Of a stretch of DNA of 64,000 bases, positions 3 to 60,878 are shown piece after piece. Numbering within the stretch: position 1 is the first letter of the stretch; every line of letters starts with the position of its first letter. A program made the translations under genes and the position numbers. The notes below the pieces were generated by a model. The model made no database searches. It was not told the DNA's origin and was given only the letters and a program-made list of their open reading frames with translations. This DNA comes from a bacterium (GTDB lineage Bacteria; Hinthialibacterota; Hinthialibacteria; Hinthialibacterales; Hinthialibacteraceae), in NCBI GenBank assembly GCA_963662285.2, contig CAXXMV010000001.1, positions 1,152,001 through 1,216,000 on the forward strand, written 5' to 3'.

Positions 3-2414
3 AACAAGACCACCGCTGAAGAACGCTTCAGGTTGTTACGGCCATACGGTGGAGAAGAATACCAACCCGTCAATCGTTCGGAAATCGTTTTTGCCAGGAA
101 TGTCAGAGGAAAACTGCAAGGCGCGGGCAACTGGACTCAACAATATGGCGATCCGCAAAACTCAGCCTGTTCCTATGATGAATTGGTTAATGGGCCCTTA
201 GGCATCTCGTGGTTCGGCGAACCGGGTCCGCAAGGCATGGTGGAACGTCATGCACGCGCTCAAAGCCCTGTGGCTATGGATGGCCGACTTTTTGTTGAAG
301 GCGAAGAATTAATCATGGCAGTCGATGCCTATAATGGTACGCTTCTATGGCAGCGTGAAATCCCCGGAGCGGTTCGCGTTAAAATCAAAGCGGATTGCGG
401 CAACTTATGCATCACGGAAGAAGGCTTATTCATAGCTGCGCTTGATAAATGCTATCGCTTGGATCCAGAGACCGGAGATACGGTGCAGGTTTATGATCTG
501 CCCATTGGTGATCCCGGCGTCTCTCGGCGCTGGGGATACTTGTCGGTGGTTGATGGCGTCCTCTATGGTTCCTCCGCCACGCCTATGACCAATGAATACG
601 CTCATCTGTTGAAAACTTTTTTGACCAATGGTCAATGGCGACCTATTGATGAAGTGCCCAATGAATTTCATGAACAATACCAAACAGCGAGAGCCAGTTA
701 TCCTCTTCCCCTCGATTTAATTCGGGCTGCTCAACGATCAGGTATTACTTATCGATACATGACGTCATTCGCCAGCAGCGGTGAATTCACTCAAAAGAAT
801 TCCGTGTCTGATAGTTTGATGGTAAGCGACAAAGTTTTCGGGATGGATATCAATACTGGTGACTTATTGTGGGAGCATTCTAAAGGTCGTATCGCCAATA
901 TTACCATAGTCATGGGTGACGGGAAAATATTCTTTGCCGATAGCGACGTGGATTCACAACAAAGAGCAAAAGCGCTTGACCAAAGGAAACGATATATCCG
1001 CGAAGGCGTTTATCGTGAACGGCAAGGCATTTTAGATGAATTGCGGGAGAAACAAGAAAAACTGGAAGCATACACCAACCGAACTCCACCAGCTACTAAT
1101 AATGTGTTGGCCTACCTGGTCGATTCACTGAAAGCCGAGTTATTCCAAGAAGAACATCCTGAAGGCGCTTTGACCTACGATGACGCTGATGTTCGCCTGG
1201 TCACCGCTCTCGATATGAAAACCGGAGCGAAAGTATGGGAGCAAATGGTTGATCTTACCGGCTGCGGAGGCGATAAAATGGGCGCCTCGTATCGTGATGG
1301 GCGGCTGCTATTCTTCGGCAACCATGGCAACCACGACGCCTGGCGTTTTCGTGAAGGCGGCATGAAATGGCGACGCATCACAGTGCTTTCGGGCGACGCG
1401 GGAGATATGGCGTGGTCTCATCCGCTCAATTACCGCACCCGCCCCGTTATTGTCGGCAACAAAGTTATATTGGAACCCCGCGCCTGCGACTTGCGCACGG
1501 GTGAAGAGATCACCCGCATTCATCCCGTTACTGGCGAGAATGTTCCGTGGGAATTTTTACGCCCCGGGCATACTTGCGGCATATCCGCCGCATCTGCGCA
1601 AGGATTATTTTACCGCTCGGCCTGTACGGCTTTTTATGATCTTGAAAAAGACCGGGGCATTACTACATTTGGAGCCTACCGTCCGGGATGCGCCATCAGC
1701 GTAATTCCTGCATGCGGCATGTTGTTATCTCCCGAAGCGGCGGCGGGGTGCACATGTTCGTATCCCATCCGTTGTTCCGTCGCGCTGGTGCGAAAACCCG
1801 AACGTACTCAACCTTGGACAATTTTTGTAACGCCGGGATCATTAAAGCCAGTCAAAAGGTTGGCGATCAACCTGGGCGCCGTAGCTGATATGAAGGATGA
1901 TGACGGGACGGTTTGGTTTGGATACCCCAGTCCGAATACCGAGGCGCATAATCATTTCCCCAATTATGGCGTGAAATTCAACTTCAAAGAGGATGGCGTT
2001 TCGGGGATGAAATATTTCAACCGGGATCACAAAAATATCAACATTCCAGGAACCGATAAACCCTGGTTATTCACTTCAGGCTGTGTAGGATTAACCCGGT
2101 GCCGAATTCCATTACTGGATGTTGAAGACAAGGATTCTTCGGGATGCTATACCGTTCGCCTGGGATTCATGCCTCTGAAAAATGATCAAGCGGGTCAACG
2201 GGTATTCAGCGTTAAACTGCAAGATGATGTGGTATTGGAAGATATTGATATCCGTCAGTCATCCGGTTCGCTGAGTCAACCAATAGTTAAAGAATTCAAA
2301 AACATCAGCGTTAAAGATGACCTGGTACTGGAACTAATCCAGAAGAATTCTTCGTCAACTAAAAACGAAGCTACCCTCATAAACTTCATAGAAATTATTC
2401 AGGAAGAGGTGTAG
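3..2414 (+). CDS. PQQ-like beta-propeller repeat protein with C-terminal malectin-like domain (5'-partial)
   Basis: Frame is open from nt 3 to the stop at 2414. It has repeated 'D-x-x-T-G-x-x-x-W' propeller motifs (DAYNGTLLW, DINTGDLLW, DMKTGAKVW), an 'LRPYGG' motif and a C-terminal 'YTVRLGF...GQRVFSVKLQ' malectin-like segment. Confidence 0.8.
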   Translation, partial: NKTTAEERFRLLRPYGGEEYQPVNRSEIVFARNVRGKLQGAGNWTQQYGDPQNSACSYDELVNGPLGISWFGEPGPQGMVERHARAQSPVAMDGRLFVEGEELIMAVDAYNGTLLWQREIPGAVRVKIKADCGNLCITEEGLFIAALDKCYRLDPETGDTVQVYDLPIGDPGVSRRWGYLSVVDGVLYGSSATPMTNEYAHLLKTFLTNGQWRPIDEVPNEFHEQYQTARASYPLPLDLIRAAQRSGITYRYMTSFASSGEFTQKNSVSDSLMVSDKVFGMDINTGDLLWEHSKGRIANITIVMGDGKIFFADSDVDSQQRAKALDQRKRYIREGVYRERQGILDELREKQEKLEAYTNRTPPATNNVLAYLVDSLKAELFQEEHPEGALTYDDADVRLVTALDMKTGAKVWEQMVDLTGCGGDKMGASYRDGRLLFFGNHGNHDAWRFREGGMKWRRITVLSGDAGDMAWSHPLNYRTRPVIVGNKVILEPRACDLRTGEEITRIHPVTGENVPWEFLRPGHTCGISAASAQGLFYRSACTAFYDLEKDRGITTFGAYRPGCAISVIPACGMLLSPEAAAGCTCSYPIRCSVALVRKPERTQPWTIFVTPGSLKPVKRLAINLGAVADMKDDDGTVWFGYPSPNTEAHNHFPNYGVKFNFKEDGVSGMKYFNRDHKNINIPGTDKPWLFTSGCVGLTRCRIPLLDVEDKDSSGCYTVRLGFMPLKNDQAGQRVFSVKLQDDVVLEDIDIRQSSGSLSQPIVKEFKNISVKDDLVLELIQKNSSSTKNEATLINFIEIIQEEV

Positions 2415-2423
2415 AGAATTTAT

Positions 2424-2598
2424 TAAACCTTAAAACGGCAGTTCGTTTTTGCAGAGGTGGTTTATATCAACCCTCTCCTTACCTCTCCCAGTCTTGGGAG
2501 AGGAATGTTAGACCACCGTATTTGTATAACTAAAACACAATGATATAACTGGTAATATTTCCGAAACCCCTCTCCCCCAAGTTGGGGGAGAATTCAAG
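2424..2598. mobile_element. Left half of REP-bearing MITE (family B), interrupted by IS481-family element
   Basis: Closely similar to 31989-32194 (shared tcaaccctctccttacctctccc...gatataactggtaatatttcc...ccctctcccccaagttgggggagaattcaag). The remainder of the element resumes at 4421 (agggggttgtt). Confidence 0.8.
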
Positions 2599-2692
2599 TG
2601 TATGAACCGGGCACATCCTTTACAGAATAAACCGGGCACATGGTTTACACAAGTCGATACTAAGAACCGACCAGAAGAAAGGAGTCGGTTCG

Positions 2693-3766
2693 ATGACTTG
2701 GAAGGAAAACAGTGCCATGGATGCAAGAATGAAATTTATTGCGGATGTCCTCCGCAAAGAAGACACACTAAGCGCCTTATGCCAAGCATATGGCATTAGT
2801 AGACCAACCGGATATAAATGGATCAAGCGCTATCAGGAAGACGGTCCTGGTGGATTGGAGGAGCGATCCCGGGCGCCCCATACCCAAGCACTAGCCGTTT
2901 CTAAAGAGACCGAAAAAGAAGTGAAGGCTATGCGAAAAAAGTTTCCGCACTACGGTCCTAAAAAATTACGGGTGGAACTGAAAAAAAAGGATGCGACGAA
3001 GCACTGGCCGGCAATCAGTACGATTGGCGAGATACTAAAACGCAAAAATCTGATTGTCAGCCGCAAGCAAAAAGATCGCGCCAAACCAAGTGGTGAAGCG
3101 TTAACCGAATTCGACCAAGTGAACCGCGTATGGTGCGCGGATTTCAAAGGAGATTTTCTAACGGGAGACGAACATCGATGTTTCCCTTTAACCGTATCGG
3201 AAGGGGCTAGCCGCTATTTACTCTGCTGCCAAGGCATGCAAGAAACCAATGGCGCATTGGTACGCGTAATTTTCGAGCAGATTTTTCGCGAGTATGGTTT
3301 ACCAGAAGTCATTCGAACGGATAACGGGGCGCCCTTTGCGTCGACCGGAATCGGAGGGTTAACCAAATTATCCGTGTGGTGGATAAAACTGAGAATTTAT
3401 CCAGAACGAATCCAGCCGGGTCGGCCTCAACAAAATGGCCGTCATGAGCGAATTCACCGGACCTTGAAAGCAGAGGCCATTTCTCCACCAGCGCCAACGC
3501 TGCGTGAACAACAAAAACGTTTTGATCAATTTCAAAAAGTGTACAACGAAGAGCGGCCTCATGAGAGTTTGGGACAACGACCTCCCGCGCAGTTGTATCA
3601 ACCCTCGCCGCGCGTCTATTCAGGTAAAGCGCCGAATTGGGAGTATCCAGAGACCATGCAGGTGCGCCAAGTGAAAACCCATGGTGAAATCAGTTGGCGA
3701 AGCAAGCATTGGTATTTGGGGGAAGCTTTGGGAGGTGAATTGGTGGGACTAGAGGAATTGGAATAG
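2693..3766 (+). CDS. IS481-family transposase (HTH + rve integrase core), C-terminally truncated by an in-frame TAG; frame continues to 3904
   Basis: N-terminal HTH (LCQAYGISRPTGYKW) and DDE motifs WCADFKG, IRTDNGAPF, QNGRHERIHRTLK, YNEERPHESL. After TAG 3764-3766 the frame reads NNWRISLGNVILGWL...CPR-TAA (3904). Confidence 0.9.
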   Translation: MTWKENSAMDARMKFIADVLRKEDTLSALCQAYGISRPTGYKWIKRYQEDGPGGLEERSRAPHTQALAVSKETEKEVKAMRKKFPHYGPKKLRVELKKKDATKHWPAISTIGEILKRKNLIVSRKQKDRAKPSGEALTEFDQVNRVWCADFKGDFLTGDEHRCFPLTVSEGASRYLLCCQGMQETNGALVRVIFEQIFREYGLPEVIRTDNGAPFASTGIGGLTKLSVWWIKLRIYPERIQPGRPQQNGRHERIHRTLKAEAISPPAPTLREQQKRFDQFQKVYNEERPHESLGQRPPAQLYQPSPRVYSGKAPNWEYPETMQVRQVKTHGEISWRSKHWYLGEALGGELVGLEELE

Positions 3767-4030
3767 AATAATTGGCGCATTAGTTTGGGTAACGTGATTC
3801 TCGGTTGGTTGAATATGTCAAAAGGTGAGGTGGTGCGTGAATTGTCTTTGAGACGCATCAATCATCCAAAAGCAATCAGTCACCCGGCAGTATGTCCCAG
3901 GTAAAAAATGAGCTAGGGAAGTATCAAGATGATGAATAATTCAGGTATTAATTTTCCTGAGATTGAATCCAGATCGTCTCTTTTTCGAGAAAATCAAAGA
4001 GCGCACGGGTGAAAAAAAAGGTGGCAATAT

Positions 4031-4214
4031 CGGGGGCGCCGCCCCCGTACCCCCGGAGTTTTTTTAGGCATTAGCACAAACTCCAGATAGTATGCAAAAA
4101 AAAGCAAAGGGACGGTTCTAAATCCGTCCCTTTAGCGACTATCCGTCGCCCGTGCACCAGGATATCCCTTGACAGGTTGCTCTCCAGCAGAGCCTGTCTC
4201 CGTTTCTCCTGGTG
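4031..4214. ncRNA. Candidate structured RNA inside the IS 3' non-coding region
   Basis: Five consecutive stem-loops, including a nested multi-stem (caccagga...gacagg...tgctctccagca...cctgtc...tcctggtg). No convincing ORF in this region. Confidence 0.4.
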
Positions 4215-4452
4215 ATAATAACTATCGGATAGCTCGAAATAATCTGTAGAAAAAGAAGTAAAAAAACAGTTCTAGCAAGTAAGCAATTCAGAATACGTTG
4301 ATATACCTGAAAACGGATTATCTCTTTAAAAAAACAGATAAGTTGCCATAATTTTCGAGACAAAAGTGTAAACCATGTGCCCGGTCTAAAGTGTAAACTA
4401 TGTGCCCGGTCATTCACAAGAGGGGGTTGTTTTCAAACACCGTGGATTAATT

Positions 4453-6240
4453 CTAATACAACGACCAATCAGTCACTGCGGTTTGATCAGAGATATCGAT
4501 TCTGCTCCAATCCGGATTGCCGTTTTGTATAGAGTTGGTTAAGGGCCATTGAATAGCCGGATTTTGGTTTGAAACCACCCATAAATTACTGGTCGAGTAT
4601 GTTTTGCTATAGCGCGTATATACGGTATAGTTACCATTAGGCCAGGATACTGACATGGGACCGAAATACTCATTGAAGAGCGTGAATATATCTGACGAAC
4701 TGGAATTATCAAAATCATAGCGTTTCATCTTAACCGCTTGTTGATCTAATTCTGTATAGATCAATCCCGAAGCGTCGGGCAGCCAGGTGGGATTCGATGC
4801 GTTCATGGAATAAAAAACTTCTTCGCCCACAGTGGTTGAATTGTCTTTTATGCGGTAAATCCCTTTAAGAAATTTCTCGTATAAAATCCAATCATCCACA
4901 GGAGACCAGGCTTGAGCGTTCATGGATATATGCTCGCCAAGTTGAGAAAATACATCCTGGCTAATGGTGTATTCCACCGGATCGGGAGTGATTTTTCTGA
5001 AGAGTCCGTCCATAGAAAAACCAATCACTGAGCCATCGCTTGACCAGGTTAAATTACGAGGCTCAAAATGGGAGCTGTTGCGATAGTAGATAACTTGAAC
5101 ATCAGCCACAGTTTCACCAGCGACAACGTCTAGAACCGTCGCTGCGATTTCGCGGTAAGAATCAGAGAGCACGGCGATGGATTGAAAAACGCCAATCCCG
5201 AAGTCCATGACATTTTCAACGCGGAATGTAGTGTAATCATTCGGCGCCAGTTGAATGCTGACCGGCTCAGGCGCCCCGTGAATAATGAGCATAGCCGCAT
5301 AATACTCATTATTCGAGTTATAAACCGTCCCTTCCACTGTGCCGGTAGGCGTATCTGCGGGTAGATTGTTGATTGAAGGGAAATTGGTAATGCGGCGCAG
5401 TCCGCTTCCATCTGGACGAATGGCGAAGATATCTGAAGAGTAAATCGATTGATGGAATTCATGATTGCTGGTGAAAGCGATTTCCGAGGCGTCGGGCCTC
5501 CAGGCGACGTCGAACATTTTGGAGAACTCGCTTTCGATTCGCCATACGCTCCGGTCATTGCTGCCATCAGGCTCTACCAGGCGGATTTCATTGAAATCAT
5601 TATCGCCATGCAGGTAAGTAATCGTTCCAAGCGTATCCGGCGTCATTATTTCTCCCGATATCCTGCATGAAACATTGTCAATATGCATGGCCAAGTCGGA
5701 CGCGACGGCATAAATAATGAAATATAACCTCCCCCCGTTTTGAACATGCTGACTGAGTGTTGCAATATCGGCTGGAGTTAATGAATAGTTGATCGCGTCC
5801 CAGGAGGCGGAAACCCGGTTTGCGTCGTTGTTGAAATGCACCTGAACCAAAGGCGAATCCAAAGGCGCCGCTTGAGCGAATATGCCTGCGCCTGATTGAG
5901 AGAAGCCGGGATTATAACCAACCGACATAAAACGATAATCAAAAGCCACATCAATTTGCTTTATAACCGATGGCGTAAATAGTGGTTGGGCTGTATAAGC
6001 CCAATAATTTTCGCTTTGGGTGGGCGCCAATGACATGCCCCAGCCTGCGCCCTGATAATTGGCTTCCTGAGTGATATACGATAATGAGCCGGAGATTCCC
6101 CAACCCGTGTCATCTGCGTCAAACGATCCGTTAATTATGTATTCGGCGTGGTCAATCGTATTAGCTGAGCATTCGGATATCTCAGTGAAGCATAGGATGA
6201 GCAAGAGAAAAGATAAGCCGGAAATAACAAACGATCTCAT
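4453..6240 (-). CDS. Secreted protein with N-terminal CBM-like domain, TolB/PD40-like propeller repeats and C-terminal VTDWSLY motif
   Basis: Signal peptide; 'INGSFD' CBM-like start; PD40-type 'WRPDASEIAFTS', 'IRPDGSGLRRIT', 'WSSDG', 'WLPDA' motifs; RBS (gaggt) upstream. Confidence 0.75.
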   Translation of the reverse strand: MRSFVISGLSFLLLILCFTEISECSANTIDHAEYIINGSFDADDTGWGISGSLSYITQEANYQGAGWGMSLAPTQSENYWAYTAQPLFTPSVIKQIDVAFDYRFMSVGYNPGFSQSGAGIFAQAAPLDSPLVQVHFNNDANRVSASWDAINYSLTPADIATLSQHVQNGGRLYFIIYAVASDLAMHIDNVSCRISGEIMTPDTLGTITYLHGDNDFNEIRLVEPDGSNDRSVWRIESEFSKMFDVAWRPDASEIAFTSNHEFHQSIYSSDIFAIRPDGSGLRRITNFPSINNLPADTPTGTVEGTVYNSNNEYYAAMLIIHGAPEPVSIQLAPNDYTTFRVENVMDFGIGVFQSIAVLSDSYREIAATVLDVVAGETVADVQVIYYRNSSHFEPRNLTWSSDGSVIGFSMDGLFRKITPDPVEYTISQDVFSQLGEHISMNAQAWSPVDDWILYEKFLKGIYRIKDNSTTVGEEVFYSMNASNPTWLPDASGLIYTELDQQAVKMKRYDFDNSSSSDIFTLFNEYFGPMSVSWPNGNYTVYTRYSKTYSTSNLWVVSNQNPAIQWPLTNSIQNGNPDWSRIDISDQTAVTDWSLY

Positions 6241-60712: not shown

Positions 60713-60788
60713 AATATTTTCTCCTAATACGTATTGGTTAATTTAACATCCAAGTATACGAATAAAATTGGTTCTCATATATTGCTAC

Positions 60789-60874
60789 ACCTGAAAACGG
60801 GTTATCTCTTTAAAAAAACAGATAATTTTCCATAATTTTGAGACAAAAGTGTAAACTATGCGCCCGGTCATTCA
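60789..60874 (+). mobile_element. Isolated right end of the IS481-family element
   Basis: Near-identical to 4305-4416 but with one terminal box lost; followed by CAAG + agggggttgttttcaa as at 4417. Confidence 0.85.
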
Positions 60875-60878
60875 CAAG

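Follow-up and report, generated by a model that had tools for sequence, protein, structure and literature searches.

What is carried by the stretch of about 460 nucleotides that separates the transposase gene from the right end of an IS481-type insertion sequence in the 64,000 nucleotides of bacterial DNA analyzed here (hereafter the window)? A sequence-only reading of this locus had noticed serial hairpins in this stretch and proposed a structured RNA that may regulate transposition or contribute to target choice. We consider it probable that the tail holds an acquired structured RNA gene that is borne by mobile elements. We are highly confident of the descriptive part of this explanation, which covers the structure of the RNA, its strand, its acquisition, its distribution and its link to rve-type insertion sequences.

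The insertion sequence and its tail

The element occupies positions 2599 to 4416 of the window on the plus strand (1818 bp). Its boundaries were set by comparing five genomic copies, which are 99.7-100% identical, together with their flanks; this comparison gave the termini TGTATG...ATTCA, of the TG...CA form. The end inverted repeats are about 50 nt long with two subrepeats apiece (2606-2650 and 4366-4410), and the right inverted repeat as a whole, two 24-nt subrepeats plus the terminus ...TCA, covers 4363 to 4416 on the plus strand. The element is flanked by a 4-bp target duplication, CAAG (2595-2598, second copy at 4417-4420). Such 4-bp direct repeats were found at four of the five copies (CAAG, CAAG, GGTG and GTCC) and copy L004 is without one. 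Inverted repeats ending in TG...CA and short target duplications, as expected of IS481 elements, are both found in this element.

The transposase frame lies at 2693 to 3904 on the plus strand and encodes a helix-turn-helix and an rve DDE domain (Pfam rve, rve_3, HTH_32 and LZ_Tnp_IS481); its end at 3904 agrees with the sequence-only reading. The best NCBIfam model was that of the IS481 family, NF033577, which scored 217.3 bits where the cut-off is 224. The window transposase is interrupted by an in-frame TAG (3764-3766). The same stop is found in copy L003, whereas the other three of the five copies have GAG at this place, indicating that the window copy is a fresh pseudogene; the TAG is a recent nonsense mutation and no recoding is involved. 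The rve transposase is the sole protein-coding gene that we identified in the element, the other ORFs of at least 40 aa being short overlapping frames.

Several observations concern the surroundings of the element. Copies of this insertion sequence lie within short, G/C-rich palindromes (cccctctcccccaag..tgggggaga). These repeats are present at several insertion sites, namely at 2460-2595 and 4417-4440 of the window and in the flanks of copies L002 and L003, which suggests that a REP-like repeat family is used as target. Another copy (L005, at 606-609.5 kb of contig C1 of the window genome, G000; duplication GTCC) lies within the terminal repeat of a second IS481-family element, which is present in 18 copies and has the RNA unit described below in sense orientation. 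Elsewhere in the window, 60782-60878 (L006) is a solo right-end remnant of a related insertion sequence with a single subrepeat; its match (60782-60869) is 91% identical to 4298-4386, and the terminus is also present. The flanking genes encode a 793-aa protein with PQQ-like beta-propeller and malectin domains upstream (33-2414) and a 595-aa protein assigned to no Pfam family downstream (4453-6240).

The non-coding tail itself extends from 3905 to 4362, the inner repeat of the right inverted repeat starting at 4363 and the right terminus being at 4416. The five stems that had been named there are all present (4031-4047, 4055-4084, 4106-4133, 4135-4149 and the nested domain 4155-4214). We likewise found no convincing ORF in the tail: the single ORF of at least 40 aa is a 92-aa minus-strand frame at 4139-4417 that begins within the right inverted repeat and is assigned to no Pfam family. 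Folding was better than in all shuffles for 3905-4365 on the plus strand (z -4.83) and for 4085-4365 on the minus strand (z -4.42). The hairpin observation was therefore right as far as it went; what had escaped it is that the stems belong to one conserved unit on the opposite strand, at about 4031-4232. This unit is set between two spacers. The first, from the transposase stop to the RNA unit (3905-4030), has no similarity outside the five copies of the element. The second (4233-4362) separates the RNA unit from the right inverted repeat; it is A+T-rich, is common only to the copies of the element and the remnant at 60782-60869, and has no counterpart in the RNA units of relatives.

Fold and strand of the RNA unit

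A genome-wide BLAST search with the tail revealed that 4155-4214 recurs outside the window element and that the differences between copies are compensatory. On the minus strand this core domain comprises three helices: P1 (4207-4214 with 4155-4162), P2 (4193-4198 with 4171-4176) and P3 (4186-4189 with 4178-4181), closed by the tetraloop GGAG (4182-4185). An internal loop, GAAACGGA at 4199-4206 opposite AAGGGAUA at 4163-4170, lies between P1 and P2. The covariance model R1 matches the window at 4151-4218 on the minus strand (G000:C1:1156151-1156218; 83.4 bits, E 6e-17), a match that arises by construction because the window sequence is in the seed alignment, and places there the P1-P2-P3 core with its GAAACGGA/AGGGAUA internal loop.

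To collect homologous sequences we used a degenerate pattern, which found at least 115 stretches in contigs representing one genome per species. Among the matches listed, 111 were unique and 93 of these satisfied a stricter core pattern; the 18 that were dropped are chance matches or divergent copies. The resulting alignment (A1) contains 87 sequences, made up of the 83 of the 93 listed units that had enough flank and four variants from the window genome. Under the three-helix model 90.9% of its cells are paired and double changes occur in 14 of the 18 pairs. The covariation score was 0.556, compared with 0.211 in shuffles (none of 500 reached the observed value) and 0.06-0.10 when the partners were slid. 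The pattern fixed 19 core bases, so that the apparent invariance of those bases in the first alignment is inflated, and they vary somewhat in a second set (A4) of 61 matches gathered otherwise, either because they carry the downstream box or because the model found them in the genomes of relatives. In this second set 91.3% of the cells are paired, 14 of the 18 pairs again have double changes and the score is 0.523 against 0.183 in shuffles, and the loop bases are still mostly constant. Where they change, they do so together: GAAG or AAAG in the 5' loop goes with AGGAAUA or AAGAAUA in the 3' loop in six of seven rows and these 3' loops occur in no other row. The fourth bases of the two loops thereby switch as A with G or G with A, which suggests a non-canonical pair. 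Covariation in 87 and in 61 homologous sequences bears out the proposal of a structured RNA in the tail. The hairpins are real and not due to chance.

The pairs of the core alignment also indicate which strand is the RNA. On the GAAACGGA strand, G.U accounts for 153 cells and A.C, which would read as G.U if the opposite strand were the RNA, for 62; leaving out the two end pairs reduces these counts to 121 and 24. This excess of G.U over A.C places the RNA on the window minus strand, convergent with the transposase. Six nucleotides upstream of P1, inspection of the alignment by eye found the hexamer GATAGT (4221-4226, minus strand), and a hexamer of -10 form stands, again by eye, at a similar short distance before P1 in relatives of the same clade and in Acidobacteria. 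It may be a -10-like promoter element, and a sigma-70 scan of the minus strand gave no full consensus promoter.

Similarity to the units of relatives and consensus folds extend the conserved RNA beyond the core, to 4031-4232, read from 4232 to 4031. In most units AUGCCU is followed after 0-3 nt by an A-run, about 60-100 nt downstream of the core on the RNA strand. In the window this box lies 91 nt after the core and consists of AUGCCU (4071 to 4066), A7 (4065 to 4059) and CUCC (4058 to 4055). The GGAG tetraloop of P3 (4185 to 4182) is complementary to this CUCC. More generally, tetraloop positions 2-4 are the reverse complement of the three bases that follow the A-run in 63 of the 66 units tested, 28 of 94 having been left out because they had no recognizable box within 330 nt or ran off the contig. 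Six tetraloop/box combinations account for these cases (GGGA/UCC in 35, GAGG/CCU in 10, GGAG/CUC in 8, GGCG/CGC in 5, GGGG/CCC in 4 and GCGG/CCG in 1), and none of 10000 permutations was as good. The tetraloop and the box strand are thus predicted to form an H-type pseudoknot.

Could the tail instead be a decayed passenger gene or another coding remnant, or act at the DNA level through protein sites or single-strand hairpins? The 92-aa minus-strand ORF does cover part of the unit, and at some loci upstream ORFs run into the motif in one frame. The motif however varies in length by one or two bases (43 to 45 nt), differences that are no multiple of three, its changes compensate pairs rather than fall at third positions, and the 92-aa ORF is without a Pfam match. 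As for duplex or single-stranded DNA, the G.U versus A.C asymmetry and the pseudoknot both favour RNA. We find these alternatives hardly credible.

Box and core are further connected by a long-range helix, P4 (4074-4155, minus strand), that RNAalifold predicted in each of three separate clade alignments; its 5' strand comes right after P1 and its 3' strand right before the box. It has two parts in the window, 4148-4155 with 4074-4081, which includes three G.U pairs, and 4137-4144 with 4085-4092. Double changes were seen in 2 of 13 pairs in 18 units from Acidobacteriota, in 7 of 9 pairs in 14 mainly planctomycetotal units and in 12 of 14 pairs in 11 units from the window and related genomes. 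The window row, included in this last alignment, pairs in the consensus P4 and has compensatory differences from the units L139 and L140. A local hairpin, GCGAC-GGAUA-GUCGC (4135-4149, minus strand), overlaps the 5' strand of P4 and offers an alternative pairing.

Inside P4 the terminator scan picked out a GC-rich hairpin (4106-4133) followed by U8 (4103 to 4096), together 4096-4134 on the minus strand. A GC-rich hairpin follows the box in most units, and in the window this 3' hairpin, P5, lies at 4031-4047. Read on the plus strand, P5 and the T7 run at 4059-4065 would have the look of a terminator of the transposase gene; the scan did not flag this arrangement. A plain stack of intrinsic terminators was considered and rejected, as one hairpin fits it and the conserved core, the pseudoknot and P4 exceed it. 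The unit might also serve in cis as a bidirectional transcription insulator or attenuator that would stop both the run-out of transposase transcription over the right end and the run-in of transcription from outside, the conserved fold merely shaping or stabilizing RNA ends or modulating read-through. Such a role would make sense of the terminator-like hairpin with U8 on the minus strand and of P5 with T7 just after the transposase on the plus strand, of the U-tract hairpins inside many units and the GC hairpins that adjoin the box, and of the constant place of the unit, in either orientation, between transposase stop and right inverted repeat. We regard it as somewhat unlikely, since terminators need no invariant internal loops, no covarying pseudoknot and no 16-bp helix that spans the terminator, and since acidobacterial units have no U-tract after the inner hairpin.

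Two other roles of the box were discarded. It is not a terminal inverted repeat: the repeats of the IS3-type element at L051 lie outside it, and at L101 it has no inverted partner. Nor is it the start of a transposase gene, as an ORF of at least 150 aa follows only one of 84 boxes and this one is a unit read backwards. Some units depart from the common layout. At L097 (4400-4631), and also at L102, L130 and L069, the P4 3' strand and the box are present a second time, upstream and inverted, so that repeats of about 33 nt in inverted orientation surround the RNA gene; no target duplication was seen at these units. In a minority layout (L101, L054, L023, L172 and L236) the box is found only upstream, inverted, about 40-65 nt before the core. 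These units have a convergent IS3 transposase and no downstream pseudoknot partner on the RNA strand.

Distribution of the unit and acquisition of the tail

The core was found at more than 100 loci, in Planctomycetota, Acidobacteriota, Bacteroidota, Desulfobacterota, Nitrospirota, Cloacimonadota, Armatimonadota, Myxococcota and Proteobacteria, and among the matches listed it spans about ten phyla. Its occurrence is patchy even among relatives. Of 61 genomes searched, 19 have the unit, with 0-25 copies per genome; within the bacterial family of the window, 13 of 19 other genomes carry it, and among distant genomes one of 26 does. Tundrisphaera lichenicola P12, which is in culture, carries units on its chromosome and on both plasmids (L200, L169 and L203). 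The model found 25 copies in the window genome, in four contexts. Outside the window element, the BLAST search had met the core 18 times in an unrelated IS481-family element, the second one, of 1.55 kb, and twice in internally deleted rve-type elements.

Where the host could be defined it was an IS3-type (in Acidobacteriota), IS481-type or IS21-type element, with the unit in either orientation; in the IS3-type element at L051 the element's own repeats lie outside the unit. By a tblastn panel, 37 of the 93 listed units have an rve-type gene at a distance of up to 3 kb; it is upstream on the same strand in 23 cases and convergent in 14. For the other 56 this limited panel found no rve gene within 3 kb, many of them being on short contigs or solo copies, so that the link to insertion sequences is not exclusive. 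According to Pfam, 19 upstream same-strand ORFs comprise 11 rve, three AAA_25, two AAA_22, one IstB, one IS110 and one response regulator. The motif at L007 had been a candidate IS21 tail, which we rejected because the tail belongs to an rve-type element with an internal deletion, located next to istB. Across these hosts the transposases share only about 20-26% identity while the core stays the same from phylum to phylum.

How did the window element come to carry the unit? Eleven loci encode relatives of the window transposase (37-56% identity) and ten were long enough to be tested. They have the same kind of end repeats, and the tail from stop codon to right repeat ranges from a few nt to about 150 nt, in line with the earlier remark that so long a tail is unusual for such elements. 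The RNA model matched none of these ten IS481 loci at E up to 1. Short tails without the motif in the ten closest relatives found indicate that the window tail of about 460 nt is an acquisition. The RNA can consequently not be taken as a trait of the window element's own lineage: it is absent from all ten related loci and occurs elsewhere in the tails of IS3-, IS481- and IS21-type elements. Relatives of the same family carry the unit in IS3-type elements, convergent with the transposase as in the window, and the window unit is 72% identical to one of these (L140) over 4056-4230 and 90% identical to another (L139) over 4124-4213. The likely source of the tail is thus the right end of such an element.

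Relation to known systems and possible function

None of the 4227 models of Rfam 15, the first check proposed for this locus, matches the window or 17 homologous loci over the unit. For window positions 2400-4600, searched at E up to 10, the best scores were 13-15 bits (E 5-9) against cut-offs of 43-70; over the unit, no model reached its gathering threshold in 16 homologous loci, and L097 had no match at E up to 10. No such RNA is described in the full-text literature that we searched, and unnamed clusters in supplementary material might list it.

We therefore compared the unit with RNAs of known systems, beginning with guides. An RNA that directs or regulates transposition by pairing with the target or with the ends of the element, in the manner of bridge or omega RNAs, would fit a structured RNA with internal loops that is internal to an insertion sequence and next to its right end. 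Like the bridge RNA (seekRNA) of IS110/IS1111 elements, the unit is a structured RNA whose helices are broken by internal loops and which is encoded in the non-coding end of its insertion sequence. The bridge RNA, however, works with a DEDD IS110 recombinase and its loops vary to match target and donor (features given in passages of bioRxiv 10.64898/2026.10.21.760802), whereas the unit accompanies an rve DDE transposase and its loops are nearly invariant. IS110 genes are near only a few homologous units. Identity with a bridge RNA was rejected because there is no adjacent DEDD recombinase and no match of the loops to the ends or the target. The omega RNA of IS200/IS605 elements, the guide RNA of TnpB or IscB, is likewise a pseudoknotted transposon-end RNA and occupies the 3' tail beside the right end. 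It overlaps tnpB at the gene's 3' end, and its guide extends beyond the end of the element. This identity was also rejected, as the window element has no TnpB or IscB gene, the unit has no guide segment and it ends 150 nt inside the right end.

A guide role in general we judge very improbable. The enzyme is an rve DDE transposase and not IS110 or TnpB, the closest transposase relatives were found without the RNA, and the loops are invariant across unrelated elements, the sole variable loop pairing within the unit. The idea that the RNA contributes to target choice accordingly loses its footing, since the unpaired bases of the core are nearly invariant across phyla and the variable loop covaries with its partner in the same unit. 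The sequence-only reading had itself seen no obvious complementarity to the target site, and we saw none to the ends of the element or to the target either. The other half of its proposal, a regulation of transposition, may still hold.

Small RNAs that come from within insertion sequences and could affect transposase output, such as IS10 RNA-OUT and the sRNA at the 5' end of IS200 tnpA, offer another comparison. The window unit is antisense to the transposase strand, as these regulators are, and in many other elements it is in sense orientation. IS10 RNA-OUT overlaps the translation start region at the 5' end of the transposase gene. The IS200 sRNA does the same for its own gene (PMC12594629). 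The unit differs from both in lying beyond the 3' end, with no overlap with the coding frame. In being defined by covariation, patchy and associated with mobile elements it resembles the orphan structured RNA motifs found near mobile-element genes, of which Rfam has entries from surveys of 104 and 224 motifs (PMC2864571 and PMC5737381). No Rfam 15 model of this kind matches the unit, which sets it apart. By analogy the unit also recalls the preQ1 and SAM-II aptamers with an H-type pseudoknot, in which a hairpin loop pairs with a downstream strand after an A-rich stretch and unpaired nucleotides are conserved. Unlike in these aptamers, the pseudoknot partner lies about 90 nt away, past a terminator-like hairpin, and there is no regulated downstream gene.

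A new class of self-cleaving ribozyme borne by insertion sequences might be suggested by the compact pseudoknotted fold, the near-invariant unpaired nucleotides and the variable peripheral domain closed by a helix, and by a unit that is patchy, multi-copy and associated with mobile elements in either orientation. Known small ribozymes have such traits. At E up to 10, though, none of the Rfam ribozyme families matched, no cleavage site can be inferred and cleavage would have no obvious use in a DNA transposon; a ribozyme appears quite improbable.

The reading that we favour, if only tentatively, is that the unit encodes a trans-acting RNA that would bind protein, as a decoy or cofactor for a conserved cellular factor, and would be neither a guide nor a part of the transposase mRNA. 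It draws on the occurrence of the unit in either orientation, on an apparent -10-like box of its own and on a core that is constant despite widely differing transposases. Constancy of the core next to transposases that are about 20-26% identical points to a conserved cellular partner rather than to the transposase. The transcript would start near 4220 on the minus strand and reach at least 4055, probably 4031 or 4012 or thereabouts. Its sequence folds into a three-helix 5' domain, P1-P3, with internal loops that are almost invariant across phyla; P4 closes a variable hairpin domain, and the P3 tetraloop pairs with the nucleotides after the AUGCCU-A-run box in the H-type pseudoknot, before the 3' hairpin. 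Transcription would meet the terminator-like hairpin and its U8 before the P4 3' strand and the box. The full fold therefore depends on read-through, and short and long isoforms with different structures may exist. The same placement of the hairpin and U8 before the P4 3' strand could instead mean a mechanism in cis or one based on two isoforms.

A unit of about 160-200 nt that has an invariant core, a pseudoknot and a long-range helix, and that is kept in insertion-sequence tails across Planctomycetota, Bacteroidota and Acidobacteriota, points to an RNA function under selection. A further-reaching possibility, which we think unlikely, is that DDE transposons of the IS3 and IS481 types in many phyla carry a dedicated folded RNA, either a ribozyme or a partner or decoy for a conserved cellular factor or for one of the transposase. 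Through this RNA the cell's state would be coupled to transposition or to the supply of transposase. Few bacterial mobile elements are as common as those of the IS3 and IS481 groups, which are not known to work with anything but proteins. If this were true, the largest group of bacterial insertion sequences would have an RNA component. Even as mere cargo the unit would be a new and widespread RNA family, with a covariance model and a cultured carrier.

The Rfam searches of homologous loci gave matches only to a group II intron beside a unit and to a hammerhead elsewhere in a locus. The intron (RF00029, 56.6 bits; L118, 5083-5159) comes with a reverse transcriptase; its end and the outer edge of the AUGCCU box are 1 nt apart. 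The view of the unit as an exon beside a group II intron was rejected, as this arrangement was seen at one of 16 loci. The hammerhead, a type II ribozyme (49.4 bits), lies at 3119-3186 of the unit-bearing locus L113.
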